DNA of 64,000 nucleotides from Chlorobiaceae bacterium. GTDB lineage: Bacteria > Bacteroidota > Ignavibacteria > UBA10030 > SZUA-254. Every line of letters starts with the position of its first letter. The first letter of the stretch is position 1. This document shows positions 29,065 to 54,301 of this stretch, one piece after another. The notes beneath the pieces were generated by a model, which saw only the letters and a program-made list of their open reading frames with translations, was not told the DNA's origin and made no database searches. The stretch spans positions 43,396-107,395 of the forward strand of contig PNNN01000011.1 of the NCBI GenBank assembly GCA_013824245.1, read 5' to 3'. Position numbers and translations under genes: made by a program.

Positions 29065-29104
29065 ATCGTCATTAGTTAATAGTCATTAGTCAATCGTCAT
29101 TTGG
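29065..29104 (+). repeat. heptad tandem array (GTCATTn)x5 = inverted copy of the nAnTGAC heptad family
   Basis: ATCGTCATTAGTTAATAGTCATTAGTCAATCGTCATTTGG forms an imperfect inverted repeat with 29502-29536. Confidence 0.7.
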
Positions 29105-29129
29105 AAAATAATTAAAGGAGGAAAAATTT

Positions 29130-29507
29130 ATGACAGTTGAATTGGAAAAACTTGAAGTGTATCAGCTTGCGGAATCGTTGGCAGATTTGGTGTGGGATAT
29201 TTGTATCGGCTGGGAATGGTTTGCGAAAGATACAATCGGTAAGCAGTTGGTAAAAGCGGCAGATTCTGTAGGTGCAAACATTGCAGAAGGTTATGGGCGT
29301 TATGCCTTTAAAGAGAATATCCATTTTTGCTGCTATGCCCGTGGATCTTTAATGGAAGTAAAACATTTTTTAAGAAGAGCGATGCAAAGAAAATTATTGA
29401 GTACCGAGCAAACAAAAAGTATTAAAAATATTTTACAACCTTTGGCTCCGAAATTGAACGCGTACATCCGTTCTATTAAAGCTGAACTCAGCAAATCCCC
29501 AAAATGA
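29130..29507 (+). CDS. four-helix-bundle protein (23S rRNA intervening-sequence-type protein)
   Basis: MTVELEKLEVYQLAESLADLVWDI...QLVKAADSVGANIAEGYGRY...ARGSLMEVKHFLRRA is the signature of the four-helix-bundle (IVS) family. It has a strong GGAGG RBS. Confidence 0.8.
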   Translation: MTVELEKLEVYQLAESLADLVWDICIGWEWFAKDTIGKQLVKAADSVGANIAEGYGRYAFKENIHFCCYARGSLMEVKHFLRRAMQRKLLSTEQTKSIKNILQPLAPKLNAYIRSIKAELSKSPK

Positions 29508-29536
29508 CAACTGACAATTAACAAATGACATTTTAC
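29502..29536 (+). repeat. heptad tandem array (nAnTGAC)x5
   Basis: AAATGAC AACTGAC AATTAAC AAATGAC ATTTTAC. The first unit contains the stop codon of the four-helix-bundle gene. Confidence 0.7.
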
Positions 29537-29584
29537 TTAAATAACCAAAACTCAAAATTTAACATCTAAGCAGTATTAATCAAC

Positions 29585-30460
29585 TTGGATACCACTGAGC
29601 TAATAAAAAAAGTCCGAAAGATCGAGATCCGAACAAAAGGTTTGGTAAATCAAATCTTTTCAGGTGAATACCATAGCGTGTTCAAAGGAAGAGGTATGTC
29701 TTTCAGCGAAGTGCGAGAATATCAGTTCGGTGATGATATACGCACAATTGACTGGAACGTGTCGGCTCGTTTCAATCATCCATATGTGAAGATATACGAA
29801 GAAGAGCGCGAACTTACCGTCATGCTAGTGGTCGATGTCAGCGGTTCGGGTGAGTTTGGCACTGTCCGTCAGATGAAGAAAGATATTGCCGCTGAGCTTT
29901 GTGCTGTGCTTGCGTTTTCTGCGCTTCAAAACAACGATAAGGTAGGAGTAATTTTCTTCAGCGATATCATTGAAAAATTTATTCCCCCTAAAAAAGGGAG
30001 AACCCATGTGCTTCGAATCGTACGCGAGCTTCTTGATTTTCAACCTTCTAATCGCGGGACCAAAATCTCCGAGGGCTTACGTTATCTCACAAGCGCGATT
30101 AAGAAAAGAAGTATTGCATTCTTAATTTCCGATTTTCTTGACGAAGGATATGATGACGCGCTCAAAATCGCCGCGCGCAAACACGATCTTATCGGTATCA
30201 GACTGTTCGATCCTCGTGAATCAAATATGGCGCGCGTTGGATTGATGAGAGTTGTTGACGCTGAGACTGGCGAGTCGGTTTGGGTAGATACATCTGACCG
30301 CAGGGTTATTCAGAGATATGAAAGATGGTGGAGTGATCGTCAGGTAGAACGCATTAAACTATTTCGCCGCAGCGGAGTGGATGGAATAGATATTCGTATC
30401 GATCAATCTTATATAAATCCATTGATGAATTTCTTCAAAGCGAGGGAGAAGAGATGGTAG
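29585..30460 (+). CDS. DUF58 domain protein (Bat operon)
   Basis: EYHSVFKGRGMSFSEVREYQFGDDIRTIDWNVSAR is the DUF58 signature, followed by a vWA-like fold. Confidence 0.85.
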   Translation: MDTTELIKKVRKIEIRTKGLVNQIFSGEYHSVFKGRGMSFSEVREYQFGDDIRTIDWNVSARFNHPYVKIYEEERELTVMLVVDVSGSGEFGTVRQMKKDIAAELCAVLAFSALQNNDKVGVIFFSDIIEKFIPPKKGRTHVLRIVRELLDFQPSNRGTKISEGLRYLTSAIKKRSIAFLISDFLDEGYDDALKIAARKHDLIGIRLFDPRESNMARVGLMRVVDAETGESVWVDTSDRRVIQRYERWWSDRQVERIKLFRRSGVDGIDIRIDQSYINPLMNFFKAREKRW

Positions 30461-31518
30461 ATAAAATGAAATCCGAAATCCGAAATCCGAAATCCGAAAT
30501 CAAAACTTCGGTTAGAATTTGGAATTATAAAAATTCCGATTTATTTCGGAATTCGATATTCGTATTTAGGGTTTTATTAGTTGTTAGTTTCATAATTCTA
30601 TCAAATCTGTTCTGTTATTCTCAGGATGTAAGAGCTACTGCGAAGGTCGATTCCAACCATATCATGATCGGTGATTGGTTCAAACTTCATATTGAAGTTG
30701 AGCATCCAAGTAATGTTACTCTGTCGATCCCGCCATTGCCCGATTCATTGAACGGTTTTGAAATTGTTAAGCGCGAAGAACCTGTAATAAAACAAATCGA
30801 TCAGCGAACACAAAAGATTCAGGATTTTATCGTTACATCATTTGATTCTGGAATTCATATTATTCCCGCAATCGTTGTTCACTATACACGGGCAGGTGAT
30901 ACTACCAAATATTTGATCGAAACATCACCCATCATTATGAATGTTGGAACCGTTGCCGTCGATACTTCTCAAGATATAAAAGACGTTAAGCCGCCTCTAT
31001 CGGTTCCAATTACGTTTGCCGATATACTTCCATATCTGCTTGTACTCATTGGAGTTGGAGGAGTAATATGGCTTACACGATATGTTATAAGAAAACGTAA
31101 ACGAGGTGAACCATTAATTCCCGAAGCGCCATCACGACCCGCAAACGAGTTAGCTATTGAAGCATTACGCTCTCTCGAATCTGAAAAACTTTGGCAGCGT
31201 GGTAAATTGAAAGACTTTCATTCTCAACTTACAGATATTGTTCGTTTGTACATTGAAAGGCGATTCAAGATACTCGCGATGGAATCGACAACTGATGAAA
31301 TATTGGATGCTTTCGGAAAAGAGACTATTAAGAACAATTCCAAAGATGAATTAAAAGAAATATTGATACGTGCCGATCTTGTCAAGTTCGCAAAGTTTCA
31401 ACCGGTTGCCGAGGAGAACGAGAAAAGTTTAGCGCTGGGATATAAATTTGTTGAAGATACCTGGCAAGAAAAAGTAGAACCTATTCAAATGAAATCAACG
31501 GAAGAGGTAACAGCGTGA
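30454..31518 (+). CDS. hypothetical membrane protein of the Bat operon
   Basis: It sits at the conserved position between the DUF58 gene and batA. It has a signal/TM segment and a second TM helix mid-protein. The 5' end contains the (GAAATCC)n heptad array. Confidence 0.5.
   Translation: MVDKMKSEIRNPKSEIKTSVRIWNYKNSDLFRNSIFVFRVLLVVSFIILSNLFCYSQDVRATAKVDSNHIMIGDWFKLHIEVEHPSNVTLSIPPLPDSLNGFEIVKREEPVIKQIDQRTQKIQDFIVTSFDSGIHIIPAIVVHYTRAGDTTKYLIETSPIIMNVGTVAVDTSQDIKDVKPPLSVPITFADILPYLLVLIGVGGVIWLTRYVIRKRKRGEPLIPEAPSRPANELAIEALRSLESEKLWQRGKLKDFHSQLTDIVRLYIERRFKILAMESTTDEILDAFGKETIKNNSKDELKEILIRADLVKFAKFQPVAEENEKSLALGYKFVEDTWQEKVEPIQMKSTEEVTA
30468..30501 (+). repeat. (GAAATCC) x about 4.9 tandem heptanucleotide repeat
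   Basis: Perfect tandem copies immediately after the DUF58 stop and inside the annotated 5' end of the next ORF. Confidence 0.9.
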
Positions 31519-33704: not shown

Positions 33705-34405
33705 AAATATTTATTACATTAATTATATTACTACTATCGATTGGTGGGATGAACGCCCAGTCGGAACGCTCCTTAATCCGCGAAGGGAACCAATTGTATA
33801 AAAAGGATAAATATTCCGATGCTGAGATAAGTTACCGAAAAGCGCTTGAGAAAAATAAAGAATTAAAGCAGGGAGCGTTCAATCTTGGAGACGCGTTATA
33901 CAAACAAGAAAGATATGGTGAAGCCGCGGAACAATACAGGATTGCCGCTCAAAATCATAAAGATGAAGAAACAAAAGCACAAGCGCTCCATAATCTTGGA
34001 AATGCTTTGGTAAAAGAACAAAAATTTCCCGACGGTATTGCGGCATATAAAGAAGCCCTCAAAATGAATCCAAAAGATATAGACACCAAGTACAACCTTG
34101 AGTATGCTAAGCGGATGCTTCAGCAGCAACAACAACAACAAAAACAACAAAAACAGGATCAAAAGAAAGATCAGAAGCAGGACAAAAAAGAGGAGCAGAA
34201 GCAAGATCAGCAAAATCAAGATCAACAACAACAAAAAGATAAACAAGATCAGCAGAAACAACAGCAAGCCCAGCAGAAAAAGCAACAGATATCAAAGCAG
34301 GATGCTGAAAGAATTCTCGAAGCTCTAAAAAACGAAGAAAAAGATGTTCAGAAAAAATTGAAAAAGAAAGCCCCAGCCAAAGTGCGAGTTGAAAAGGATT
34401 GGTAA
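33701..34405 (+). CDS. batC: BatC (TPR protein with Q/K-rich low-complexity tail)
   Basis: ATGA overlap with the batB stop. It has a signal peptide, TPR repeats, then a QQQQQQKQQKQDQKKDQK... region. Confidence 0.7.
   Translation: MKIFITLIILLLSIGGMNAQSERSLIREGNQLYKKDKYSDAEISYRKALEKNKELKQGAFNLGDALYKQERYGEAAEQYRIAAQNHKDEETKAQALHNLGNALVKEQKFPDGIAAYKEALKMNPKDIDTKYNLEYAKRMLQQQQQQQKQQKQDQKKDQKQDKKEEQKQDQQNQDQQQQKDKQDQQKQQQAQQKKQQISKQDAERILEALKNEEKDVQKKLKKKAPAKVRVEKDW
34121..34296 (+). repeat. coding simple-sequence region (CAA/CAG/AAA-rich) encoding a Gln/Lys/Asp-rich tract in BatC
   Basis: About 175 bp of cagcagcaacaacaacaacaaaaacaacaaaaacag... Confidence 0.8.
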
Positions 34406-34407
34406 TT

Positions 34408-34493
34408 TGAGATTTCGGATTTCAGATCGTAGATTTCGGATTATATAACAAGAGCCAAAAACAAATGACTAATAACAATTGACGAATGACATA
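34408..34493 (+). repeat. two adjacent heptad arrays: (GATTTCG-like)x5, then (nAnTGAC)x4 ending in the batD ATG
   Basis: GATTTCGGATTTCAGATCGTAGATTTCGGATT ... AAATGAC TAATAAC AATTGAC GAATGAC AT. Confidence 0.7.
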
Positions 34494-37079: not shown

Positions 37080-37513
37080 TTTTTAGTTTTCTCGACCGAA
37101 TTATAATTGAAGATTCATTTCCGAAAGAATTTATTTACGCTCAGCATATAAAAGCGTATTTAGAGCTTTCTGAAAAATTAGCACAGAGTCACCCTGAACG
37201 TCTCGACTGAGCTTGACGAAGTCTTGTTTCAGGGTCTAAAATTGGATAGATTCCGAAACACCTGCCCGCCGCTTCGCTTTGGCAGGCGGGAGTTTGGAAT
37301 GACTCTAATCTTTTCTAAATATTTCGGATGTTTGATTTAATAAAGATTTTAAGATACTTTAGCCGACAAACTTCATTCTTTTGACTTTAGGGTCTCAATT
37401 TCGTAACTTAAATCCGTAATTCTATTGAAAAACAGTCGAATCGTTGTTGTTAATCCGTCAATTAAGAAAAATGTACCAAGAACAAACAACTAAGAACCAA
37501 TAACCAATAATAA

Positions 37514-38524
37514 ATGACCATATTAGTAACAGGCGGATGCGGATTCATCGGCAGTAATTTTGTTAAGTATATGCTCGAAACTTATCCCGAAGATATAATA
37601 GTGAATTTCGATAAGCTGACATATGCCGGGAATCTTGAGAATTTACAGGATATTGAAAAAAATCCCAAATATCATTTCGTTAAGGGTGATATCTGCAATC
37701 GACTTGAAGTTGAAGATTGTATCAAGAAATTTAATACCGATGTTATCGTCAATTTCGCCGCGGAATCGCATGTTGATCGAAGTATTTTAGGACCTGCGGT
37801 TTTTATTGAAACAAATATTGCCGGAACAGGAATTCTTTTACAGGTTGCCAAAGAAATCGGCATTAAGAAATTCGTGCAGATTTCAACGGATGAAGTTTAC
37901 GGATCACTCGGCAACGATGGAAAATTCACCGAAACAACACCGCTTCATCCTAACAGTCCGTATTCTGCATCCAAAACATCCGCCGATTTGTTGGCGCTTG
38001 CGTACGAACATACATTTGGATTGCCTGTTGTAATTACACGCTGTTCTAATAATTACGGACCTTATCAATTTCCCGAAAAACTTTTACCGTTGATGATTGC
38101 CAACGCTTTCGATAATAAACCATTGCCTGTTTACGGTGACGGGATGAATATACGAGATTGGCTTTATGTAAAAGATCATTGCATCGCGATCGACGTAGCG
38201 CTTCGCGAAGGGAAAGTTGGAGAAGTTTATAATATCGGCGGTAATAACGAGTGGGCGAATATCAATATCATAAAATTATTATTGAAAATTATTAATAAGC
38301 CCGAGTCGCTTATTAAATATGTGAAAGACCGCCCAGGGCACGATCGTCGGTATGCGATTGATGCTTCGAAGATTGAAAAGGAACTCGGTTGGAAGCCGAG
38401 CGTAACTTTTGAAATCGGTTTGGAAAAAACTATAAAGTGGTACCTTGAAAACGAAAACTGGTGGCGACGAATAATCAGCGGAGAATATCAACAATATTAT
38501 CAGAAATTGTATGGGAACAGATAA
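37514..38524 (+). CDS. rfbB: dTDP-glucose 4,6-dehydratase
   Basis: MTILVTGGCGFIGSNF, YSASK, and an extended SDR with the RfbB signature. Confidence 0.95.
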   Translation: MTILVTGGCGFIGSNFVKYMLETYPEDIIVNFDKLTYAGNLENLQDIEKNPKYHFVKGDICNRLEVEDCIKKFNTDVIVNFAAESHVDRSILGPAVFIETNIAGTGILLQVAKEIGIKKFVQISTDEVYGSLGNDGKFTETTPLHPNSPYSASKTSADLLALAYEHTFGLPVVITRCSNNYGPYQFPEKLLPLMIANAFDNKPLPVYGDGMNIRDWLYVKDHCIAIDVALREGKVGEVYNIGGNNEWANINIIKLLLKIINKPESLIKYVKDRPGHDRRYAIDASKIEKELGWKPSVTFEIGLEKTIKWYLENENWWRRIISGEYQQYYQKLYGNR

Positions 38525-40175
38525 AAACGTTATGTATTTCAAATCTATGATTAAGGTCGTTTCACTTTTGTTCTTTATTACATTCATTTCTATTTCACAA
38601 GATAAACAAAAGACAGATGAATTCGGATTACAACTGCAGGATAAAACAGCGCAAGCAATTGTGCAGCCCGCAGGTGTTCCTCTCGAATCCACAGTCGATC
38701 CGGAAAAATATTTTATTGGACCTTCGGATGTTATAGCTGTAAATATCTGGATGAGTCCGCCATTCAATTTCTCTCTGACGGTTACTCCGGAGGGAACACT
38801 AATAATTCCAACTATCGGTGAAGTGATGGTAGCAGACCTCACGCTTGCGAAAGCCAAGGAGTTGATATTTCGAGAGGCACGAAAAAAATATTTATCTGCC
38901 GAGATAACCGCCACATTGATAAAGCCGCGACCGATTATTGTTACCGTAACCGGTAATGTGTTAAATGAAGGACTTTATACGTTGAGTGCAATTGATCGTG
39001 CCACTAAAGCTATTGAAGAAGCGAACAAGCCAACCCGTTTGCAGAAGCAGGATGATCTGAATTATATATTGCAGCAAATGTCAACTCGTAATATTGTTCT
39101 TAAGCATAAAAACGGCGCAGAAGATAAAGTGGATATAACAAAATATTTAGCCACAAAGAAAGATTGTTGGAATCCTTACCTTCGCGAAGGTGATGTAATT
39201 ATTGTGCCGAGGAAAAATCCGCTAAAAAATGTTTTTGGTATTTACGGAGAGGTCAATTCTCCGGGTAGATATGAGTTTGTTGATGGTGATAGTCTTTTAG
39301 ATGCATTCAAGATCGGAATGGGATGTACCCGGCTTGCAATGAAAGACAGCGTTGAGTTTACGCGGCTCTCGCTTGACGGTACGATCCTAACAAGTCATAT
39401 AATCGATATTCAGTCAATAATGAATGGGAATCAACCGAATTTCCCTCTCGAATCTGGCGATAGAATTGTTGTGAAAGCAAAGAAGGAATCTCGCGAAGAT
39501 TACAGGGTGAATATTCAAGGCGAATTAATGTACCCCGGAATGTATCCGATCACAAAAGATAGGACGAAGCTCTCGGAGGTTATTAAACAGGCAGGAGGAT
39601 TTACCGAATTTTCCGCTCTTAAATCTGCGACTTTGAACAGAAGGTCTGTCCAGCCGCGTGAAGTTGAAATCGAACGGCTCCTCAGCGCTCGTGGAGGCGT
39701 CTCTGCCGAAGATAGTTCCGATTATTTTCTTGAGACTGAACTTCGACTTAAGAAAGAAATTGTTAGTATTGATTTCGAAAAATTATTTATCGATGGAGAT
39801 AGTTCACAAGATGTGATTCTTCAAGATGAAGATTACATAATTGTCCCGTCGGTTAAAAAAACTATTTATGTGTTTGGGCAGGCGGTTACACCCGGGCATG
39901 TACCGTTTATAAAAGGAATGAATAGTGAATATTACATCGCCAAAGCCGGCGGGTTCACAGACCGGGCTCGAACGGGCGACGTGCAAATTATTAAAAACAA
40001 AACTAAACAATGGCTCGATCCAGATGAAACAACAATTGAAGAAGGTGATTACATCTGGATACCAAAAGACCCCGATCGTCCGTTCTCATATTATATGACA
40101 ATCGCCAGCCAGGCGGCAAGTGTGCTGAGTGTGGTGGTGGGAATTATGGTTGTGATAGCGCAGGTAACGAAATAA
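38511..40175 (+). CDS. wza: polysaccharide export outer-membrane protein (Wza-like, multiple SLBB domains)
   Basis: Signal peptide, a polysaccharide-export N-terminal motif (PGDVI...), repeated SLBB-like units and a C-terminal TM helix. Confidence 0.75.
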   Translation: MGTDKNVMYFKSMIKVVSLLFFITFISISQDKQKTDEFGLQLQDKTAQAIVQPAGVPLESTVDPEKYFIGPSDVIAVNIWMSPPFNFSLTVTPEGTLIIPTIGEVMVADLTLAKAKELIFREARKKYLSAEITATLIKPRPIIVTVTGNVLNEGLYTLSAIDRATKAIEEANKPTRLQKQDDLNYILQQMSTRNIVLKHKNGAEDKVDITKYLATKKDCWNPYLREGDVIIVPRKNPLKNVFGIYGEVNSPGRYEFVDGDSLLDAFKIGMGCTRLAMKDSVEFTRLSLDGTILTSHIIDIQSIMNGNQPNFPLESGDRIVVKAKKESREDYRVNIQGELMYPGMYPITKDRTKLSEVIKQAGGFTEFSALKSATLNRRSVQPREVEIERLLSARGGVSAEDSSDYFLETELRLKKEIVSIDFEKLFIDGDSSQDVILQDEDYIIVPSVKKTIYVFGQAVTPGHVPFIKGMNSEYYIAKAGGFTDRARTGDVQIIKNKTKQWLDPDETTIEEGDYIWIPKDPDRPFSYYMTIASQAASVLSVVVGIMVVIAQVTK

Positions 40176-40275
40176 AAGTGATAGGATGTCCGATGGATCG
40201 ATTTATTGAAAATTACATAAAAAGATGATTTTATCACGCAATACACATTGAGTTAGTAAATAGAAGGCGGTAACA

Positions 40276-42884: not shown

Positions 42885-43104
42885 AACAAAAAACAACCAT
42901 ACTTGGGTCTTCTCTCCACATGCTAAATCTAACCGCAAATAAAATACTATCTTTCCGATTCGAGATATTTAGAGATGACCAAGTTTATCTACGTCGGGCA
43001 AATCACAACCAGTGTTATCGTTTTATCGCAACTGATTTTCAGTTTAAGCATTAAGTCACACGTATGTTTAGAACATTTGAAGAATACCAAGAATTTTAAA
43101 ACCA

Positions 43105-44628: not shown

Positions 44629-44707
44629 AATAAATTACATAATACCCTTATTGTCATTCAATTGAAATTCTATCATAATTGTCTACATAAATTAGCAACA
44701 TCATGGA

Positions 44708-44732
44708 GATGACTTAATTGACTATTAACTAC
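44708..44732 (+). repeat. heptad array (TGAC-core) upstream of gene 44778
   Basis: GATGACT TAATTGA CTATTAA CTAC is related to the arrays at 29065, 29502 and 34463. Confidence 0.5.
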
Positions 44733-44777
44733 ATCTTATCATTATCACGATAATCTGAATTTGGAGAAGATTTATTC

Positions 44778-45773
44778 TTGAGATTGATCATAAATAAAAA
44801 TACAGATTATCATGTATCTTTAGATGCCGTTGCCGAATTCGAGAATGCAATATTATCTGATACTCAGATTAGAGCTATTTATATTAAAAATAAAATCATA
44901 TCAAAGATTTGCACATACTGTTGGTTGGGATTAAAAAGTCTCAGCCGTGGTACAAATCATTTTATTAAACCGAAGTTGTTTATAGGCATTAAAAATAAAG
45001 GCGCCCGAGACTATTTCGCAGTCCTCATGGGACTTGATGTCAATAAAGTTTTACCATATTTCCTGTTTTCCGGGAGAAAAAATATATATTTATTTGATGC
45101 CTGGCCCAACACTCACGAAAGACTAAAAGACATAGTTAAATATTGGAATATCAATCACGTGTTTTTGAGTTCTTCTCAGGCGGTAGAACAATTATGTTCG
45201 GCCAGTCATAAGTGTAATTACTCATGGATACCGGAAGGCATAAATCCAGATCTCTACATGTCTTATTCTTACAATGATAAAAATATTGATGTTGTACAAG
45301 TTGGACGAAAGTACGAAACCCATCATCGGCTAATAGTAGAACCTTTAGAAAAAGAGCGGAAAGTTTATTTGTATGAGAAAGTAAAAGGAGAAATTATCTT
45401 CCCGGGCAGGGGAAAATTCATTGAGGGTATAGCGCGGGCAAAAATTTCGATTTGTGTTCCTTCCAGTATAACACATCCCGTGCGAGCAGGTGGTATAGAA
45501 ACAATGACTATTAGATATCTGCAATCGATGGTTTCGAAGTGCCTTTTGTTGGGGCATGCCCCGCAAGAAATGATTCGTCTGTTCGGTTATAATCCTGTTA
45601 TTGAAATTGACAGCCAAGACCCAGTGAAGCAAATATTTTTTCTCCTTGAACATATTAAAGACTATATTCCACTGATAGAAAAAAACTATAAGACAGTAGT
45701 AGAACATCATACATGGCGTCATCGATGGGAAAGCATTTCAAATGTTCTCCGTCAAGATTTAAGAGCTAACTGA
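44778..45773 (+). CDS. hypothetical protein in polysaccharide locus (possible glycosyltransferase-like)
   Basis: Good coding potential and embedded in the locus. No confident motif. Confidence 0.35.
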   Translation: MRLIINKNTDYHVSLDAVAEFENAILSDTQIRAIYIKNKIISKICTYCWLGLKSLSRGTNHFIKPKLFIGIKNKGARDYFAVLMGLDVNKVLPYFLFSGRKNIYLFDAWPNTHERLKDIVKYWNINHVFLSSSQAVEQLCSASHKCNYSWIPEGINPDLYMSYSYNDKNIDVVQVGRKYETHHRLIVEPLEKERKVYLYEKVKGEIIFPGRGKFIEGIARAKISICVPSSITHPVRAGGIETMTIRYLQSMVSKCLLLGHAPQEMIRLFGYNPVIEIDSQDPVKQIFFLLEHIKDYIPLIEKNYKTVVEHHTWRHRWESISNVLRQDLRAN

Positions 45774-45782
45774 GATAAGGTA

Positions 45783-46556
45783 ATGAGAATATCAATAATA
45801 ACACCTTCATATAATCAAGGCGAATTTATTGAGGATACAATCAAATCTGTGATCAACCAAGACCATAAGGATATTGAGCATATCATTATGGATGGAGGAT
45901 CAACAGATCAAACAGTATCGATCTTAAAAAAGTACGATCATTTAAAATGGGTGTCCGAACGAGATTCTGGGCAGAGCAATGCCATAAACATGGGCTTTCG
46001 AAAAGTATCTGGGAATATCATAGCGTGGTTAAATTCTGATGATTATTATGAGGATCACATATTTGGTGATATTGTTAAATATTTTGAGCAAAATCCTGAA
46101 TGTATGCTCCTATATGGTGATATTACGTTTGTTAACAAAGAAGGACATTCTCTCTATAAGGTTTCCGGTGATACAATTGACTACGGCAAGCTCATTGAGT
46201 GTCCTGATATTGTTCGCCAACCGAGTTTTTTCTGGAGGCGAGAAGTGATAGAAATAATTGGCGGCGTGGATGAGGACTTACATCTCGTTATGGATTTTGA
46301 TTTTTTTCTCCGCATTGCACGCAGATATAAGTTCCATTATATTAATAGAAATTTGAGTTACTACCGAACGTATGAAGTAAATAAAACCAGTGCATTGCCC
46401 CGACGACAAGTATATGAAATCTACAAGGTTTTCAGAAAACAACATATTCCGATGACGATTCCTCGTGCGAATTATTTAATTCGGAAGTATTTCAACTCAA
46501 TCGGTGCGGTAAAAGGTTTAGCGGCAATCATTCGACATCTAAGAAAACGTGGTTGA
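45783..46556 (+). CDS. glycosyltransferase family 2
   Basis: ISIITPSYNQGEFIEDTIKSVINQ...IIMDGGSTD...DD, the GT-A fold signature. Confidence 0.8.
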   Translation: MRISIITPSYNQGEFIEDTIKSVINQDHKDIEHIIMDGGSTDQTVSILKKYDHLKWVSERDSGQSNAINMGFRKVSGNIIAWLNSDDYYEDHIFGDIVKYFEQNPECMLLYGDITFVNKEGHSLYKVSGDTIDYGKLIECPDIVRQPSFFWRREVIEIIGGVDEDLHLVMDFDFFLRIARRYKFHYINRNLSYYRTYEVNKTSALPRRQVYEIYKVFRKQHIPMTIPRANYLIRKYFNSIGAVKGLAAIIRHLRKRG

Positions 46557-47778
46557 AAGATTGAAAAATAAACGAATTTTATTTGTCGATCATGATGAAG
46601 GACGATCTGGTTCGACTATCAGTCTTGAATACCTGCTCAGAGCATTTATTGCTAAGAAGTACGATTGTTATGTTCTAACATCAAAGGATGCGATGGAGTC
46701 GCAACCGTTTTTGGAAGCGGGTGCAACACTTATCGATTTACGAAAATGGTATTCGGGTACATTAATGCTGGGTTTTCACTTCACAACGACGAGTTCGTTT
46801 TTCTCGTGGAGAGGTATGCGGATGATGGTGTCTAGTATTATTAGGTTTTTTTTGGGATTTATTATCACACGACAAGTTATAAAAAAGATTAAACCTGACT
46901 TGGTATACGTTAATGAATATATCATGGTACAAGCATCGGTAGCGGCGTACTTCAGTGGGGTGCCATCGGTAATTCATATACGTAGCCCGTTCTTAAAAGG
47001 TGATTTTGGCGTACGCAGACGGATCATTTCACGACTTATTCTGGCTTATAATCGGTTCATCATAGCAATTACTCGAATTGAAGCAGAACAGTTGAATCCG
47101 TATAAAGAAGAACTTGAAAAAATTTTAATTGTCGGTGAATTTTTTTCCCCATGTTATGTAAGTAATGATGAAAAGAGTGTGTATCGCGAATTATTCGGTT
47201 TACCAAAGAATAAAAAGATTATATTGATGTTAGGGGGAATTGAACTTGTAAAAGGCACTATCGACTTTTTACGTGCAGCTCAACTGGTTATTTCAGAGCG
47301 AAACGATGTCATTTTTGTTATTGCAGGGAAAATTAAAAAAGTTGGAAACTCAGAAGATCAAGCATATTTTATGCAATGCATGCAGATAGCAGATTCATTA
47401 AAGGAAAATGAAGGAATCAGGGTTCTGGGTGAAGTTGCGGATTCATTAAAATTAATTGCGGCTTCAGATATTGTAATTTCACCATCAATTCAAACTCATT
47501 TTTCCAGACCAGTTATAGAGGCGTGGGGACTAGGTATACCTGTTATTGCCGCAAAGACAGAACATATGAAAGATCTAATCACACATGGAGTTGACGGTTT
47601 TTTGGTGGATGTTCATGATTACCATTCTCTCTCTCGATACATTCTATTACTACTTGACAATGAAGAATTAAGCAAAAGACTTAGGATCGAAGGAGCAAAG
47701 AAAGCAATTACAAACTTCAATGCAGAAAGAAATACATGTGTGATAATTGATAAATGTAACTCTCTATTTTTATCCTGA
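46549..47778 (+). CDS. glycosyltransferase family 4 (GT1/GT4, GT-B fold)
   Basis: C-terminal E..G.P conserved block (EAWGLGIPVIA) and the typical GT4 nucleotide-binding region. Confidence 0.8.
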   Translation: MVERLKNKRILFVDHDEGRSGSTISLEYLLRAFIAKKYDCYVLTSKDAMESQPFLEAGATLIDLRKWYSGTLMLGFHFTTTSSFFSWRGMRMMVSSIIRFFLGFIITRQVIKKIKPDLVYVNEYIMVQASVAAYFSGVPSVIHIRSPFLKGDFGVRRRIISRLILAYNRFIIAITRIEAEQLNPYKEELEKILIVGEFFSPCYVSNDEKSVYRELFGLPKNKKIILMLGGIELVKGTIDFLRAAQLVISERNDVIFVIAGKIKKVGNSEDQAYFMQCMQIADSLKENEGIRVLGEVADSLKLIAASDIVISPSIQTHFSRPVIEAWGLGIPVIAAKTEHMKDLITHGVDGFLVDVHDYHSLSRYILLLLDNEELSKRLRIEGAKKAITNFNAERNTCVIIDKCNSLFLS

Positions 47779-47919
47779 ACTTTAATTGATAAATTTTTTT
47801 AAATGCCTCCGAATGAGAAAAATACAAGCAATTCAGGTTTTGGTTAATAAGAATCGATCCTGCGATAAATATATAAAATATTCAGTAGTACTAATAAAAC
47901 CAAATTTAGTCGGCTAATT

Positions 47920-48777
47920 ATGATTCGGATAGCGGGTGTTGTAGTTTTGTATAATCCCCCAGAAGACGTCTTACAAAATATAAATTCTTATAGGGGACAA
48001 ATCGAAACTTTATTTATAGTTGATAATTCTGAAAAACAAAATCAAACGTGGATAAATAATATTATCTTGGCGAAAAATGTTATTTATAAATGGAATGGCG
48101 GTAATTTAGGAGTTGCCACAGCTTTGAATATTGGTGCTAAGCTTGCAATAGATCATGATTACGATTTTCTTTTAACGATGGATCAAGATAGCTTCACTTC
48201 GGAAAATTTGTTACGTGAATATTCGCAGTTTATACAAACCTATTCTTCAAACGATATTGGAATTCTTGCGCCATATCATGTATACAAGAATTACGAGAGA
48301 CCTGCTGAGTTAGCAATGGCGAAAGAAATATCAATGACTATTACATCGGGGGCGCTACTAAATCTTGCAGCATATAAACAAGCAGGTCCTTTTATGGACG
48401 ATTTGTTTATTGACTATGTTGACTTTGAATATTGCTTGCGCCTACGTATAAGTGGATTCAAAGTGATTCAACTTAGTCTTGCAACCTTGAATCATCAATT
48501 GGGAGCAATTGAGGCAAGAAGGTTTATTTTTCGGCGGGTCGCTGTATATAATTATCCACCTATCAGAGTGTATTATAAATTCCGAAATAGATTGTTCGTG
48601 GTTAACAAGTTTTTTTTTGCGTACCCTATGTGGGCATTTAGAGAGTTAATTACATCGATGAATGAATTAATTAAAATAATCTGCTTTGAAAAAAATAAAT
48701 ATATCAAATGTAAAATGGCTTTTTTAGGAATGAGAGATTGCGTCATTGGCCGGATGGGGAAATATCGGCATGTGTAA
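47920..48777 (+). CDS. glycosyltransferase family 2 (rhamnosyltransferase-like)
   Basis: MIRIAGVVVLYNP...DNS...DQD motifs of GT2. Confidence 0.75.
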   Translation: MIRIAGVVVLYNPPEDVLQNINSYRGQIETLFIVDNSEKQNQTWINNIILAKNVIYKWNGGNLGVATALNIGAKLAIDHDYDFLLTMDQDSFTSENLLREYSQFIQTYSSNDIGILAPYHVYKNYERPAELAMAKEISMTITSGALLNLAAYKQAGPFMDDLFIDYVDFEYCLRLRISGFKVIQLSLATLNHQLGAIEARRFIFRRVAVYNYPPIRVYYKFRNRLFVVNKFFFAYPMWAFRELITSMNELIKIICFEKNKYIKCKMAFLGMRDCVIGRMGKYRHV

Positions 48778-48909
48778 ACGAGAATTATCGCTGAAAATTA
48801 TTAAATTAAATAAAGTGTTTTTCAACTTGTTAATTTTCATCTAAAAACAACCTATGAATGCTTTTCAGGTTCTTATAAATATTTCAACATCATTGATCAT
48901 TTCATTTAT

Positions 48910-49869
48910 TTGCGGTCTATGATAGATAATCCTATAGTTTCAATCATTGTAGTTAGTTATAATAATCTTGATGTGTTACGTGGTACCCTTGCGAGTTTAT
49001 TACATCATGTTACCGGGGTTTCTTCGGAAATAATTCTTGTTGATAATGCCTCTCATGAACCTATTGTTGAATCGATACAAAAGGAGTTTCCGCAAATACT
49101 AATCGTCGCGAACAAGCATAATTTGGGTTTTGGTGCAGCTAATAATATAGGAGCACGAATTGCCCGAGGTGAATATTTGCTCTTTGTTAATAGTGACGTT
49201 ATTCTCAAGGGTAATCCTGTGCAGGATATGATAAAAATTTTCGTACAAAATCCACACGCAGGTATTGTTGGATGTCAATTATTTAATATGGATGGCACAT
49301 TACAGCCTTCATATTTCAGATTTCCGAGCATAAGAATGAGGTTTATCCAATTAAGCGGATTGAAAACTCTTATTCTAAAAATATATCCAAGATTACGGTT
49401 TAAATACTCAGAAACATTGGAATTGGATTTTGTCTCCGGCGCTTTCTTTATGATAAATAGATTGTTCTTTTACGACATCCACTGTTTTGATGACCGTTAT
49501 TTTATGTATCTTGAAGATGCAGATCTTGGTTATCAGGTTAAACGCAAGGGGAAACGTTCACTCCTTTTTCAGACTAGAGATGTCATCCACATTGGCATGA
49601 ACTACGAAGCAATGAACAACCCTTTTGTGCTTTTTCATATGAACGATGGGTACTTAAAGTTTTTTTCCAAAAATTACGGTGCTTGGAAGTATTTTACAAT
49701 GATCACAATGAGTCTCTTGTTGTTTTCGGTGAAAATGATTTTCACAGTATTACATGAAAATGGCACGCGGGAACGTCAACAAATAAAAAGATTACTCTCG
49801 ATTTATTATCGAGCGCTTTTCAATCGTTCTTATGGCTCTGTTAGTACCTTAAAGAGATCTGCGAATTAG
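48910..49869 (+). CDS. glycosyltransferase family 2
   Basis: IVSIIVVSYNNLDVL...LVDNAS...GFGAANN...NSD, typical GT2. Confidence 0.8.
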   Translation: MRSMIDNPIVSIIVVSYNNLDVLRGTLASLLHHVTGVSSEIILVDNASHEPIVESIQKEFPQILIVANKHNLGFGAANNIGARIARGEYLLFVNSDVILKGNPVQDMIKIFVQNPHAGIVGCQLFNMDGTLQPSYFRFPSIRMRFIQLSGLKTLILKIYPRLRFKYSETLELDFVSGAFFMINRLFFYDIHCFDDRYFMYLEDADLGYQVKRKGKRSLLFQTRDVIHIGMNYEAMNNPFVLFHMNDGYLKFFSKNYGAWKYFTMITMSLLLFSVKMIFTVLHENGTRERQQIKRLLSIYYRALFNRSYGSVSTLKRSAN

Positions 49870-49871
49870 AT

Positions 49872-51101
49872 TTGAAGACAATAATGAAAAAACGACTTTG
49901 GATTATTTCCGAATTTTACTATCCCGATGAAAACGCAACTGGTCATTTAATCACCGAGATGGCTGAAAGGCTATCTATTGATGATGAAGTTCATGTTCTG
50001 TCTGGTCCTCGTATGAATCAATCAGCTAAAATAAAGGAATATTCTTACGTGCGGAATGGCGTAGTTGTTGAACGACTTCGAGCATCCACCTATAATAAAA
50101 ATATTCTTGTGCTTCGATTAATAAATATTATTACGTTGAGCATACAACTATTATTTCGACTTCTTCAAGTATTGTATCAAGGCGATCATATCCTTGTTGT
50201 TACTAATCCACCATCTTTTCCATTTATCGTTGCTATTGTTAGTAGATTGAAAAAAACATTCTATTCGGTGTTGTTGTTTGATGTCTATCCTGACGTACTT
50301 ATTGCCACGGGATTATTGAAAGATAAAAATCCATTGGTGGGTTTGATGAATAAAGCGGCAAGCTTTATTTTAATAGGAGCAGAGCATGTTATTGTATTAG
50401 GACGCGATGTGCGCAAACTTGTAAAGGATAAATATAAAAAAACTGAAAACCTTGAAATAATACCTCTTTGGGGAGATGTTCAACATATTGTGCCGATGGA
50501 TAAAAAATGTAATCCAATTTTAAAAGAGCATTCTTTTGAAAACAACTTCGTTGTTTTGTATGTTGGCAACATCGGTCGAACTCATAATGTTGAACTTCTT
50601 GTTCAATGCGCCCAATTGCTTATAAATAAATCTGATATTTCATTCTTGTTCATTGGCGATGGTGCGAAAAAAAAATGGTTGGATAACCGTATTGCAGAAC
50701 TCGGTCTTTGCAATATCAAAACACACACATTTTATTCTCGAACTAGACAGTCTGATGTTCATTCGGCAGGAGATATAGCCGTCGTATCTTTTATTCCCGG
50801 TATGGCTGGTATATCGGTCCCAAGTAGGATGTATAATATTATGGCGGGGGGGAAGCCGATTCTGGCTATTGCAGATGAGAAATCTGAATTGGCAATGGTA
50901 GTACGCGAAGAAAACATCGGCTGGGTGATATCTTCTTATAATGCTCAAGATGTAGTAGATGTGATTTTAACTGCAAAAAATAAGGAAACGGAGTTGCTTG
51001 AAATGGGTGCTCGAGCAAGAAAGGTAGTTGAAGAAAAATATACTCTCGAAAGAATTATATTGAGGTATAAAAATTTAATCCTATATGATAATAACAGGTA
51101 A
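49872..51101 (+). CDS. glycosyltransferase family 4 (WbuB-like)
   Basis: KKRLWIISEFYYPDENATGH N-terminus typical of WbuB-like GT4. C-terminal GT-B domain. Confidence 0.8.
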   Translation: MKTIMKKRLWIISEFYYPDENATGHLITEMAERLSIDDEVHVLSGPRMNQSAKIKEYSYVRNGVVVERLRASTYNKNILVLRLINIITLSIQLLFRLLQVLYQGDHILVVTNPPSFPFIVAIVSRLKKTFYSVLLFDVYPDVLIATGLLKDKNPLVGLMNKAASFILIGAEHVIVLGRDVRKLVKDKYKKTENLEIIPLWGDVQHIVPMDKKCNPILKEHSFENNFVVLYVGNIGRTHNVELLVQCAQLLINKSDISFLFIGDGAKKKWLDNRIAELGLCNIKTHTFYSRTRQSDVHSAGDIAVVSFIPGMAGISVPSRMYNIMAGGKPILAIADEKSELAMVVREENIGWVISSYNAQDVVDVILTAKNKETELLEMGARARKVVEEKYTLERIILRYKNLILYDNNR

Positions 51102-51236
51102 TATGAAAACCACCCTCGGTTTTGCCAATATGTGGCCGGAGATCATTAAGACCACCGTGGTTATTTTAGATGGATTATTAATGATAAGCCCTTATAATTT
51201 TTTATAAAATATAAAAATAATGAATTTATTTAAGAA

Positions 51237-52637
51237 ATGAAGATAGAACAAAAAGATTCCAAAGTAGTTTTCTTTATTGATCTTTTTATGATCAATGCTG
51301 GGTGGTTGCTCTACTACCTCCTCCGTATCCGTAGCGGTTGGCTGACATATTCTACAGAACCCGATTTTATCATTCCAATGATCGCGGTTGGTATATTTTG
51401 GCTTATCATATTTTTCTTCTTCGGACTTTACCGCCCGTGGTATGCAAAATCTCGTTTCGATGAATTCGCTACCATTTTTAAAGCGACAACCTTTGGCGTG
51501 TTGTTTTTATTTTTCGCAATATTCATAGACGACGGAGGTGTTGGCTCGCCACTCAAATCGCGGTTGCTTATTCTGTTATATTGGGTGTTAATGCTGACTT
51601 TTGTTGGCTCGGGTCGTTTTTTGATGCATACTTTTCAGCGCCGTTTGCTGATGGCTGGCATCGGTTTACGCAACACTCTGATTGTCGGCTGGTCTGATAA
51701 GGCGAGAGAACTTTTTAACTCTGTAAAAAATTCTCCCGCGCTCGGTTATAAGATTATTGGTTTTGTTCCGGTTATCAACGGAGAAAATGATACTGAGTAT
51801 GACGGCATCCCAATAAAAGGTTCTGTTGATGATCTTCCAAAGCTTGTCGATGAAAATAATGTGAGAGAGATCCTTATAGCTCTTGATTCTTCGGAACATG
51901 ATAACCTGCTTCGCATTATTGCCACTTGCAATACAAAGCCGGTTGGACTAAAAATTATTCCTGACCTGTATGATATCATCAGCGGTCAGGCACGGACAAA
52001 CCAAATCTATGGTTTTCCTCTTATTGAGATTATGCCTGAGATAATGCAGCCATGGGAGCGGGCGATCAAGAGAACGATTGATATTATGTTCTCAGCAATA
52101 GTACTTTTGATTGGATTGCCAATTTGGATTATTGTTGCAATTGCAATCAAGCTTGATACAAAAGGTCCGGTGTTTTACACTCAAGATCGTGTAGGAAAAG
52201 ATGAAAAACATTTCCCGATAATAAAATTCCGCACTATGTTTGCGAACGCCGAAAGTGAATCGGGACCTGTGTGGGCAAACAAGCAAGACCCGCGTGTTAC
52301 TCGTGTTGGTAAAATTTTAAGAAAGCTCCGCATCGATGAAATTCCACAGCTTATTAACATTTTAGACGGAAACATGAGTTTGGTAGGTCCTCGTCCCGAG
52401 AGACCATTTTTTGTTGAACAGCTTTCTAAGGAAATTCCGCTTTACAAACGCCGACTTAAAGTGCGCCCCGGAATCACCGGCTGGGCGCAGGTTAAACACA
52501 AATACGATGAAAATATAGAGGATGTAAAAAAGAAAGTTCAATATGATCTCTTTTATATTGAAAATATGTCGCTCAGAATGGATTTTAAAATTCTTCTCAA
52601 CACTATTTCGGTAGTATTATTAGGAAAAGGACACTGA
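51237..52637 (+). CDS. wbaP: undecaprenyl-phosphate sugar phosphotransferase (WbaP/exopolysaccharide polyprenyl glycosylphosphotransferase family)
   Basis: N-terminal TM helices, a central CoA-binding-like domain, and a C-terminal bacterial sugar transferase domain (KRTIDIMFSAIVLLIGLPIWIIVAIAIKLDTKGPVFYTQDRVGKDEKHFPIIKFRTM...PQLINILDGNMSLVGPRPE). Confidence 0.85.
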   Translation: MKIEQKDSKVVFFIDLFMINAGWLLYYLLRIRSGWLTYSTEPDFIIPMIAVGIFWLIIFFFFGLYRPWYAKSRFDEFATIFKATTFGVLFLFFAIFIDDGGVGSPLKSRLLILLYWVLMLTFVGSGRFLMHTFQRRLLMAGIGLRNTLIVGWSDKARELFNSVKNSPALGYKIIGFVPVINGENDTEYDGIPIKGSVDDLPKLVDENNVREILIALDSSEHDNLLRIIATCNTKPVGLKIIPDLYDIISGQARTNQIYGFPLIEIMPEIMQPWERAIKRTIDIMFSAIVLLIGLPIWIIVAIAIKLDTKGPVFYTQDRVGKDEKHFPIIKFRTMFANAESESGPVWANKQDPRVTRVGKILRKLRIDEIPQLINILDGNMSLVGPRPERPFFVEQLSKEIPLYKRRLKVRPGITGWAQVKHKYDENIEDVKKKVQYDLFYIENMSLRMDFKILLNTISVVLLGKGH

Positions 52638-54301
52638 TGAATATTCGATATTCGATATTCGATGTTCGATTTTTGAGCAGGTTAACAGTATGGTTATGGT
52701 TGGTGATTATCTCGATTAGTACCGTTTCGTTATCCCAGATCGAAAACGTTCCTGTGAATAATCAGGTGTATGAATTTCTTGACAGAATGGGAGTGAAGGG
52801 AATTCTCCCACTCTATAGCAACACGATGATTCCGATATCTCGAAAAGAAGTCGCGGAATTATTGATGAGTATCGATCATAAGCGTAATGGACTGAATAAT
52901 ATCGAGATTGAATTTATCGATAAGTTTAAGATCGAATTCATGCACGAGATTGATCCTGCCAAAGAAAATCCGGCTGTTCTTTTTCGCGGAAGTTCTTTCG
53001 GCGATCTTCTTTCCGAGAAAGAAAAATATCTTTACGATTTCAGAGATTCAACAATATCTTTTTATATGGAATTTATTGGTTCGCTGGAACAGCGGCAAAT
53101 TTCGGGTGATAGTTACGGTTCGGCACATTCCACATTCGAGGAACATGGAGGCAGAATTCGCGGAACTATCAAGAATCGGTTAGGATATTATTTGCAAGCG
53201 ACAAATGGAACGATGTATGGCAACAGAGAATTTGCGTTATCGGATCCACGATTGAAAGGGAATGTGAAGCTCAACGATCTTGATTCGCCATATTTCGATT
53301 TTACAGAGGCATATCTTCGTGCCGATCTTGATTGGTTCAATCTCGAGTTCGGTCGAGAGCATAATATGATTGGAACCGGATATTCCGACCGCCTGCTTCT
53401 TTCGGCTAATGCGCCTGTATTCGACTTTTTGAAATTAGATTTCCAGTACAAATCGTTTAGATTTTTGTTCATGCAGGGCTCGCTTGTCGATCCAATGTCG
53501 TCATCGAATAAATATCTCGCACTTCATCGCGCTCAGTTTTCCCTTTTTGATATAATGAATGTCGGAATTTCGGAAATGATAATATACCAGCGTAATTCGG
53601 TTGATTTTGCTTATATGAATCCGATTAATTTCTATAAATCATCGGAACATTCGCTTCGCGACAAGGATAATGCTTTCTTAAATTTCGATCTTGAAATATT
53701 TCCGTTCCCCGGATATAAATGTTACGGTACATGGCTCATCGATGATATGGATTTTAAAAAAATGGGAACCGGTTGGTGGGGAAACGAGTTTGGCTGGCAG
53801 GGCGGTCTTATGGTAGCTGATCTTGCCGGCTTTGAAAATATCGATGGCTATGTTGAGTACACTCGTTTAGAACCGTATGTATACAGTAACCGACTCAATG
53901 GCAATTCTTTTACGAATAACTCCATTGGCTTGGGTCATCATCTGCAACCAAATTCCAATGAACTGGTAGTGCAATTTGCTTACCGCCCGATGAAACAACT
54001 GCGTACCTGGGTTAGTTTTGGAACATCGCGCCACGGAGAAAACAAAGTTATTGATGGAGTGGTTTTAGAAAATTACGGTGGCGATATAGTTCAAGGTCAC
54101 CGTCAGTTTGATTCAGAAACAGCAAAGTTTTTAGACGGCGATTTGGTAACAGCAAATCGTTTACAATTGAAAGCAATTTATGAACCGATAACGAATATTT
54201 TCATTTCAGGTCTGTATGAATTTCAACGGATTAAGAAAGATGTTCTCAGTATTACAGAAAACAATCATTACGGTTCAATAAGATTATCGGTAGAATATTA
54301 A
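52637..54301 (+). CDS. wzi: capsule assembly Wzi-like outer-membrane protein
   Basis: Signal peptide, then the NQVYEFLDRMGVKGIL motif characteristic of the Wzi N-terminus. The body is large, beta-rich and rich in Tyr/Gly/Asn. The ATG overlaps the wbaP stop (ATGA). Confidence 0.55.
   Translation: MNIRYSIFDVRFLSRLTVWLWLVIISISTVSLSQIENVPVNNQVYEFLDRMGVKGILPLYSNTMIPISRKEVAELLMSIDHKRNGLNNIEIEFIDKFKIEFMHEIDPAKENPAVLFRGSSFGDLLSEKEKYLYDFRDSTISFYMEFIGSLEQRQISGDSYGSAHSTFEEHGGRIRGTIKNRLGYYLQATNGTMYGNREFALSDPRLKGNVKLNDLDSPYFDFTEAYLRADLDWFNLEFGREHNMIGTGYSDRLLLSANAPVFDFLKLDFQYKSFRFLFMQGSLVDPMSSSNKYLALHRAQFSLFDIMNVGISEMIIYQRNSVDFAYMNPINFYKSSEHSLRDKDNAFLNFDLEIFPFPGYKCYGTWLIDDMDFKKMGTGWWGNEFGWQGGLMVADLAGFENIDGYVEYTRLEPYVYSNRLNGNSFTNNSIGLGHHLQPNSNELVVQFAYRPMKQLRTWVSFGTSRHGENKVIDGVVLENYGGDIVQGHRQFDSETAKFLDGDLVTANRLQLKAIYEPITNIFISGLYEFQRIKKDVLSITENNHYGSIRLSVEY
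52641..52675 (+). repeat. (ATATTCG)-like x5 heptanucleotide tandem array at the wbaP/wzi junction
   Basis: ATATTCG ATATTCG ATATTCG ATGTTCG ATTTTTG sits inside the first codons of wzi. Confidence 0.8.

Follow-up and report, generated by a model that had tools for sequence, protein, structure and literature searches.

Tandem arrays of heptanucleotides beside start and stop codons have reportedly been known from cyanobacteria since 1990, when Mazel is said to have described the short tandemly repeated repetitive (STRR) sequences. We know of no function or partner protein that has been agreed for such arrays, and the proteins of family PF05635, although abundant, have to our knowledge no role outside diversity-generating retroelements. 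We analysed a stretch of 64,000 nucleotides from a Chlorobiaceae bacterium (contig PNNN01000011.1, positions 43,396 to 107,395; hereafter the window), in which arrays of 7-nt units recur at gene junctions and two of them flank a PF05635 gene that encodes an S23p/Avd-like protein. Our preferred reading, to which we give a probability of about 0.55, is that the arrays are parts of palindromic junction inserts, built of slippage-prone heptamers and resembling the S23p-bearing intervening sequences (IVSs) of 23S rRNA, and that the effect of these inserts on the operon transcript governs their tolerance and orientation.

Heptamer repeats with the units GGGAATC in Xanthomonas and GGGGA(C/T)T in Nostoc were reported by Rehm (2015; PMC4692102). 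Those of Xanthomonas are 89-93% intergenic, lie near the upstream open reading frame (ORF), often occur as inverted pairs, and keep their position while their length varies; no regulatory effect was seen and no function was identified. TAACTGA repeats were described in Beggiatoaceae, cyanobacteria and five Bacteroidetes (MacGregor, 2015; PMC4679880), in a paper that also cites the long simple sequence repeats (SSRs) of Mrazek, and both this paper and a Nostoc preprint (10.1101/2022.06.06.494920) postulated a heptamer-binding factor. The two papers did not connect the arrays to PF05635 genes: the text of Rehm has 0 occurrences of the string 'S23', and that of MacGregor 0 of '23S' and of 'four helix'. 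The 23S rRNA IVS of Coxiella contains an S23p ORF, a 28-bp terminal stem and tandem heptamers (GACAGAT, two to three copies) whose number varies among strains, and is excised by RNase III (PMC4990558). A further member of the superfamily, the Avd protein of diversity-generating retroelements, binds nucleic acid and a reverse transcriptase (PMC10053308).

The gene that lies between the first two arrays of the window had been missed by the initial annotation, which had described the arrays only. It occupies positions 29130..29507 (all features described here are on the + strand), has its own AGGAGG Shine-Dalgarno sequence, and encodes a four-helix-bundle protein of 125 aa of the S23p/Avd-like family (PF05635/TIGR02436), with matches to Pfam PF05635 (E = 9e-25) and NCBIfam TIGR02436 (E = 4e-23). 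A profile comparison matched the product to PDB 2GSC (E = 4.6e-11), a five-chain entry for the Xanthomonas S23p, which is a homopentamer according to Lin 2006 (as cited in PMC4990558). The 5' arm of this cassette (29065..29104) begins 1 nt past the MoxR stop codon and is a G/T-rich array of five nnGTCAT units, while the A/C-rich 3' arm (29502..29536) contains four to five nAATGAC units, the first of which supplies the S23p stop codon TGA (29505-29507). As the initial annotation had recognized, the first array is an inverted version of the second, namely its reverse complement. The complete insert thus spans 29065-29536, and is followed by a degenerate, 7-periodic A/C-rich spacer (29537..29584) that reaches the TTG start of the DUF58 gene; the identity at a lag of 7 nt in 29508-29584 was 0.51, compared with a background of ~0.27. 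Altogether, ~520 nt (29065-29584) separate the MoxR stop from the DUF58 start.

The two arms are complementary to each other at 71% over 28 nt and are 399 nt apart. The minimum free energy fold of the 496-nt transcript segment predicted that the arms form the closing stem, with ~29 bp in five helices. In the sequence, the odd unit GTTAAT of the 5' arm corresponds to ATTAAC of the 3' arm in the same register. The neighbours of the cassette are MoxR, DUF58 and Bat proteins, and no 23S rRNA gene is found at the site; an Rfam scan of the whole window at gathering thresholds matched neither rRNA nor any other RNA family. Promoters and intrinsic terminators were also considered as an identity for the arrays and rejected, because consensus matches occurred at chance level and none on the + strand coincided with an array.

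Comparison of the MoxR/DUF58 junction among relatives showed that the insert behaves as a unit. Contigs nearest to the window, designated by L numbers, were labelled Ignavibacteriales, Ignavibacteria, Bacteroidota or 'uncultured Chlorobiaceae'. The two closest genomes are L001 and L002, whose DUF58 proteins score highest against that of the window (96% and 95% identity); in both, the whole of 29065-29584 is replaced by a 5-nt spacer (TAGtcttcATG). A PF05635 gene is found at the same junction in L004, L005, L009, L010, L011 and L014, being degenerate in L005 and truncated in L011. The flanks of the gene are mutually complementary in all six relatives, with a unit that differs between them (GTCATT/AATGAC or GTTCTT/AAGAAC).

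The initial annotation had asked for a comparison of copy number between strains, and one such comparison could be made. L161, a contig from SRR29054605 with an identical MoxR protein, is ~99% identical to the window over 680 nt (6 substitutions) and lacks exactly 14 nt, or two heptamers, of the non-coding 5' arm (29073-29086). A collapse during assembly is an unlikely cause of this difference, since the longest repeated stretch in the array is ~9 nt. Look-ups of the exact protein sequences of DUF58, S23p, BatC, the sugar transferase and the dehydratase returned no second strain, and only MoxR gave one. Further afield, three junctions of the Bat operon carry arrays in many distant metagenome-assembled genomes (MAGs), with different units, either as single arrays or as inverted pairs; the position of the array is kept among relatives, while length and sequence vary. 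Taken together, the inserts come and go as units and change in length by whole heptamers, and the sequence of the unit turns over fast while its position is kept.

We then determined whether the association of PF05635 genes with inverted arrays is general. Metagenome contigs were scanned with an alignment of six cassette proteins, yielding 80 loci, and 70 PF05635 genes with usable flanks were compared with 215 control ORFs from the same loci. Upstream flanks were aligned locally with the reverse complement of downstream flanks, and a score of >=16 was taken to indicate inverted flanks. Inverted flanks were present at 69% of the PF05635 genes and at 2% of the controls. A tandem array was found upstream of 59% of the PF05635 genes (controls, 7%) and downstream of 60% (controls, 9%), the best period being 7 or 8 about equally often. 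The arms belonging to one cassette paired better (median -47 kcal/mol) than arms taken from different cassettes (-34) or shuffled arms (-33; p about 1e-13). The upstream neighbour was co-oriented with the PF05635 gene in 60 of 65 cases, and the 3' array usually began at or over the PF05635 stop codon. The unit of the arms co-varies with the protein: 61-75% of gene pairs with >70% protein identity shared a unit, compared with 1-7% of pairs below 50%.

The protein of solved structure offered a further case. The sequence of XCC0516 (PDB 2GSC) was mostly rebuilt from the alignment, Xanthomonas homologues were found with it, and the surrounding DNA was inspected. The Xanthomonas S23p gene is inserted between accB and accC, in the same orientation as both (L165-L169, positions 1424-1872). 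Directly past the accB stop codon stands GGGAATC GGGAGTG GAGAATC GGGAATC, followed by the S23p gene and then by CCCATTC CCCATTC TCGACTC CCTATTC CC immediately ahead of the accC ATG. An S23p cassette with inverted arrays of the GGGAATC unit is therefore present in the acetyl-CoA carboxylase operon of Xanthomonas, a well-studied genus. In the literature searched, which was incomplete, we found no publication that links free-standing PF05635 genes to tandem arrays.

The arrays of the window are far more numerous than its composition predicts. A simple run detector found 10 runs of period 7, compared with 0.4 expected from 20 dinucleotide-preserving shuffles of the window, and 0-1 runs for each of the periods 4, 5, 8, 10, 11 and 13; period 7 also outranked every other non-triplet period in 80 related loci. 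Arrays of period 7 and 14 were called with Tandem Repeats Finder (TRF), which returned head-to-tail 7-nt units in at least three copies at seven of the eight sites that the initial annotation had listed, and additionally at 19939. The eighth site, 44708-44732, gave no TRF row and was discarded, as its two TGAC cores are 9 nt apart and its lag-7 identity (0.24) equals the background. Three further arrays lie outside the interval covered earlier, at 19939-19970, at 58011-58048 (a run of the detector) and at 58070-58095. The two arms of the cassette were called at 29064-29101 (period 14 at 87% matches, or period 7 with 4.9 copies at 74%) and 29502-29530 (4.1 copies, 77%).

The remaining arrays belong partly to the same Bat/MoxR aerotolerance-type operon, which consists of MoxR (28078-29064), DUF58 (29585-30460), an unnamed membrane protein (30454-31518) and BatA, BatB, BatC, BatD and BatE, up to 37079. 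At the junction after DUF58, an A/C-rich array at 30465..30503 (TRF, 30468-30501: GAAATCC, 4.9 copies, 100%) lies in frame directly after an ATG that overlaps the DUF58 stop. It is one arm of an inverted pair that encloses no ORF; the G/T-rich partner arm at 30540..30578 consists of CGnATTT-like units and is translated in the signal-peptide n-region of ORF 30454-31518. The two arms are 77% complementary over 39 nt (fold z = -1.9), and an arm orthologous to the second is present in L005 and L001. In L001 and L002, a long A-rich array at the DUF58 junction forms a perfect hairpin (AAATTCTAAAT...ATTTAGAATTT), and the junction after DUF58 (~11010-11050) contains an extra GC-rich segment relative to the window (CTCAGCCGAAGGCTGATGCGCCTCTGGCGCAG), with two small hairpins.

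Two arrays adjoin one another between BatC and BatD. The first, a G/T-rich array of the GATTTCG type at 34405..34443 (TRF, 34405-34442: 5.4 copies, 67%), begins at the BatC stop codon and shows weak self-pairing. The second, an A/C-rich array of the nAATGAC type at 34460..34493 (TRF, 34460-34491: period 14, 83%), contains the BatD ATG (34486) in its last unit, is predicted to be unpaired, and has orthologues in L001, L002, L004 and L014; the inverted pair around the BatD start is weak. We considered whether these adjacent arrays pair with each other and rejected the idea, since there is no complementarity between their units and the A/C-rich array stays unpaired in the fold. The GAAATCC array at 30468-30501 and the GGATTTC-type array at 34405-34443 belong to exact reverse-complement families (the initial annotation had called the second reverse-complement-like) and lie 3.9 kb apart. 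Pairing between them, over four genes of the same presumed transcript, is conceivable.

A polysaccharide cluster extends from 37514 to 54301. Its first gene, which encodes a dTDP-glucose-dehydratase-like protein, is preceded by a weak A/C-rich array (37475..37516, run score 18; TRF, 37475-37507: 4.7 copies, 76%) that ends in the ATG (37514), is predicted to be unpaired, and has a short G/T-rich partner at 37441-37451 that forms a weak inverted pair with 37485-37495. It had been taken for a weak copy of the nAnTGAC type, which is incorrect because its unit is ACCAAGA/AACCAAT. Within the cluster, a single G/T-rich array at 52637..52676 (TRF, 52641-52670: ATATTCG, 4.3 copies, 95%) begins at an ATG that overlaps the upstream TGA and is translated as the n-region of a Wzi-like signal peptide. 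Beyond the cluster, two degenerate arrays lie in the intergenic stretch 58013..58095, which has a lag-7 identity of 0.54: one is A-rich (58011-58048), the other is of the CATATCG/CACATCT type (58070-58095), and both are single arrays. They lie between ORF 57059-58012 and an ATG at 58106 that we read as the true start of the next gene (placed at 58066 by the ORF caller); the CATATCG/CACATCT unit family recurs in L002, L007 and L056.

One array lies well inside a coding sequence. At 19939..19970, ATTTCGG is repeated 4.6 times within ORF 18654-20150, which encodes an esterase-like protein, and is translated as NFGFRIVDFGF within a C-terminal sorting domain of the type IX secretion system (TIGR04183 match, residues 420-495). 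Compared with typical sorting domains, this domain does not seem to be altered in length. Arrays of the GGATTTC type translate to FRI.DFGF, and this peptide motif is also found in the N-termini of Bat and Wzi homologues.

The position of the arrays relative to genes was analysed in a census that covered the window and 80 related loci, in total 1.38 Mb of which 89.5% is coding. Here, 67 of 108 period-7 arrays were located between co-directional genes and 14 more within the first 90 nt of an ORF. Among 75 junction arrays, 38 began <=10 nt from the stop codon and 27 ended <=10 nt from the start codon. Composition followed position: on the sense strand, A+C was 0.45-0.47 in arrays nearer the stop and 0.62-0.63 in arrays at the start (p = 2.5e-4), so that stop-side arrays tend to be G/T-rich and start-side arrays A/C-rich and G-poor. 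A/C-rich arrays were predicted to be unpaired, and a Shine-Dalgarno-like motif was found at 19 of 57 genes. The arrays are thus almost confined to the gaps between co-directional genes and to the beginnings of signal peptides, whose codons are under loose constraint. This bears out the earlier placement of the arrays at stop/start junctions. Those of the window begin 1-8 nt past a stop or end in the next start codon; several contain the stop or start codon itself, as seen for S23p, BatD and the gene at 37514, and at 30468 and 52641 the array starts on or immediately past an ATG overlapping the stop codon of the preceding gene. As had been proposed, the arrays form a family. They are not specific to one genus, since such arrays occupy the same junctions in many Ignavibacteria and Bacteroidota MAGs and heptamer arrays have been published for cyanobacteria, Xanthomonas and Beggiatoaceae.

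We interpret these observations as follows. The arrays are short, slippage-prone repeats of the STRR/heptameric SSR type, which in this lineage would form the arms of palindromic inserts at stop-start junctions of operons. The one complete insert consists of a G/T-rich array, an S23p/Avd-like gene and a reverse-complementary A/C-rich array that supplies the stop codon, and the other arrays would be ORF-less inverted pairs (such as 30465-30578), weak pairs or single arms drawn from the same few unit families. The operon transcript presumably reads through the insert, and the arms may then zip into the long interrupted stem predicted by folding, looping out the S23p gene. The design of this stem is that of the S23p-bearing 23S rRNA IVS, and by analogy the loop might be cut out by RNase III. 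The cassette plausibly works like an rRNA IVS. Where the A/C-rich tract stays unpaired, it could provide an unstructured leader for the downstream cistron, often giving its ATG, in a genome that appears to use few Shine-Dalgarno sites. The elements would persist as selfish or near-neutral passengers, and not as a switch.

A number of observations weigh against this interpretation. Cleavage by RNase III and the leader role are carried over from other systems by analogy. As a whole, the cassette does not fold more stably than shuffled sequences (z = -0.3); specificity is limited to the closing stem. A stem cannot account for all junctions, because the GATTTCG and AATGAC arrays at BatC/BatD lack complementarity. 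At 30465-30578, the polarity of the ORF-less pair is reversed, with the A/C-rich arm first. Several arrays of the window are built of units (GAAATCC, ATATTCG) other than those in the arms of its single S23p gene, and their descent from such cassettes is therefore only putative. Finally, the patchy presence of the cassette among relatives may reflect recurrent loss or recurrent insertion.

The arrays at 30468 and 52641 deserve separate consideration, as they are non-triplet SSRs in frame in the 5' coding region, as in a contingency locus, and a change of one unit would shift the frame, as the initial annotation had pointed out. These arrays are probably translated. ORF 30454 is open from the ATG overlapping the DUF58 stop, through both arms, to the signal peptide and a conserved mature start (QDVRATAKVDSN), the equivalent frame is open in L003, L004, L005 and L007 (with the reverse-complement unit GGATTTC in L004), and database homologues of the product begin with array-derived peptides such as MVNFRFGIADLGLRI. 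Slippage by one or two heptamers at the two sites might toggle the membrane protein of the Bat operon and the Wzi-like capsule protein within a population. Such a switch would fit the near-perfect arrays (100% and 95%), a unit length that is not a multiple of three, their location between a coupled ATG and a signal peptide, the envelope or surface functions of both genes, and the existence of whole-unit indels between strains of the species. However, the sole strain indel observed is in a non-coding arm, and L005 shares the same four full AAATCCG units with the window even though the adjacent DUF58 protein is only 88% identical. Orthologues that differ in the length or unit of the array keep the frame: the Wzi-like orthologues L162-L164 have other G/T-rich units of the form GATnTnn (GATTTGG, GATATTC, GATTTGT) directly past the coupled ATG, the N-terminal region, 18 codons long in the window, comprises 23 in L162 and is always in frame, and P0002-P0013 are in frame as well. 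Where the frame is closed, in L001, L002 and L011, a downstream in-frame TTG could serve as the start in the first two. No OFF allele was seen among the relatives compared, which are more distant than strain level. Because the in-frame arrays keep their frame across relatives, and most of the family is non-coding and so beyond the reach of such a model, phase variation is not supported as the general explanation, and we regard it as very unlikely even at these two genes.

The arrays had alternatively been proposed to be binding sites for a regulator, and the adjacent S23p-like gene now provides a candidate for that role. Each heptamer, with a 5-nt core and a 2-nt variable spacer, might bind one subunit of an oligomeric single-strand nucleic-acid-binding protein, in the manner of TRAP on triplet arrays, thereby regulating translation or processing at the junction or mobilising the arrays. 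The S23p homopentamer would be the obvious candidate, with Csp and ribosomal protein S1 as alternatives. Units do keep a core and vary at two fixed positions, about 60-70% of S23p genes across phyla are array-flanked, protein identity and arm unit co-vary, and a heptamer-binding factor had been postulated before (MacGregor, 2015; PMC4679880; 10.1101/2022.06.06.494920). The modal arm length of 4-5 units would fit the five chains of 2GSC, a homopentamer according to PMC4990558, although the detection threshold truncates the distribution and partly sets the mode. Common descent would likewise lead protein and unit to co-vary, the window has at least four unit families and only one S23p gene, and the work on Coxiella suggests that its S23p is not even expressed (PMC4990558). 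We hold this putative mode of binding to be unlikely. A bolder version, which we put forward tentatively and likewise consider unlikely, is that S23p/Avd-like pentamers are the partners of heptamer and octamer arrays in general. The array-flanked gene would then be a 'master copy' and the ORF-less junction arrays its dependants, with one unit bound per subunit, driving the spread, maintenance or RNA processing of the arrays. At the other extreme, the arrays may be debris of slippage that arises anywhere, has no function and survives under weak selection, with the S23p gene as a tolerated passenger. According to Mrazek 2007 (as cited in PMC4679880 and PMC4692102), the replicase preferentially slips by 7 nt, no regulatory effect was found by Rehm (2015; PMC4692102), units turn over rapidly at orthologous sites, and arrays are restricted to codons under loose constraint or to DNA that is not coding. 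Slippage at random would not, though, lead one to expect that the flanks of PF05635 genes are specifically complementary (69% vs 2%), that the same three Bat-operon junctions carry arrays in distant taxa, or that composition is significantly polar relative to stop and start codons, and we judge this explanation distinctly improbable. The interpretation as IVS-like junction inserts is the one that we retain.

How closely the locus resembles the described systems can now be stated. With heptameric SSR/STRR repeats, it shares the strict 7-nt period, arrays of a few to ~10 units, the mostly intergenic location between co-directional genes, near an upstream stop or ending at a start, the occurrence as single arrays or inverted pairs, and a position that is conserved in relatives while length and sequence vary. 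It differs in the Ignavibacteria-like lineage, which is new, in having several unit families within 30 kb, and in the in-frame translation of some arrays as n-regions of signal peptides. The AATGACC unit is a rotation of the reverse complement of TTGGTCA, reportedly the unit of STRR2. CAACAGT and CCCAGT-type units also occur in related loci. Contingency loci likewise have a perfect non-triplet repeat just past the start codon of envelope or surface genes; in contrast, the arrays here have 4-5 units only, no ON/OFF alleles were seen, the frame is conserved and most members are non-coding.

The likeness extends to elements with a resident gene. REP/REPIN elements (REP, repetitive extragenic palindromic) and their RAYT transposase, reportedly described by Nunvar in 2010 and by Bertels and Rainey in 2011, share only the pattern of one gene flanked by inverted short repeats that are otherwise dispersed intergenically in the genome. 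The S23p protein is a small four-helix bundle without a known catalytic motif and not an HUH (Y1) transposase, and the units are tandem and 7-8 nt long, unlike the ~25-nt palindromes of that system. The idea of a 'master copy' has its parallel in the discovery of the REPIN system through a RAYT gene with REPs on either side. The S23p-bearing IVSs of Coxiella and Leptospira (PMC4990558) have a PF05635 ORF in the loop, terminal inverted repeats and a stem of ~28 bp, as predicted here. In both cases the number of heptamers varies among strains (here, the 14-nt indel of L161) and the ORF decays (here, in L005 and L011; in Coxiella, during reductive evolution), and the IVS is regarded as selfish. 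The cassette differs in that its arms are themselves tandem arrays and its ORF has a strong AGGAGG Shine-Dalgarno sequence. Moreover, it resides in the junction of a protein-coding operon, whereas IVSs are found in helix 25 or 45 of 23S rRNA; because of this location in an mRNA, it does not belong to the rRNA-IVS family in the strict sense. With Avd (PMC10053308), the cassette protein shares the PF05635 superfamily of pentameric four-helix bundles. No reverse transcriptase domain was found among the cassette neighbours; a template/variable repeat pair was not specifically searched for. This kind of array was already known; the lineage and above all the link to S23p cassettes are, as far as can be told, new.

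The link joins heptamer arrays and PF05635 proteins in one testable hypothesis, and in culturable organisms, since it covers a Xanthomonas protein of solved structure in the very genus where GGGAATC arrays were catalogued. If the S23p/Avd-like pentamers are indeed partners of the arrays, the STRR-type repeats of cyanobacteria, Xanthomonas, Beggiatoaceae and Bacteroidota/Ignavibacteriota would be accounted for, and a very large family of uncharacterised proteins, among the largest of its kind, would gain a function. On the practical side, gene callers translate the arrays, so that predicted proteins acquire spurious N-termini or N-terminal extensions (RFRIADFG and KSEIRNPKSE, for example), and fast-evolving inserts at operon junctions of these phyla can be used as strain markers.

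A few additional repeats were observed. In L028, a Bacteroidota MAG, a GATTGAC/GATTGAT array of ~28 units (1178-1375) begins directly at a stop codon, and arrays can therefore outgrow the 4-5 units of the window by far. Some contigs contain two PF05635 genes, namely L103 and L140 (2501-2878 and 4452-4853); the genes of L140 have different arm units, an 8-mer of the AACCAATA type and a 7-mer of the CCCAAAC type, a pattern consistent with each PF05635 paralogue having its own repeat. Within the window, TRF hits of period 3-24 at 34127-34280 correspond to the translated, Q/K/D-rich low-complexity tail of BatC (QQQQQQQKQQKQDQKKDQ...) and are unrelated to the heptamer arrays. A repeat of period 9/18 (CGGAATTATCGGTTTTAT, two copies) is located at 42617-42652, in the membrane-protein coding region of the Wzy-like ORF 41466-42884.

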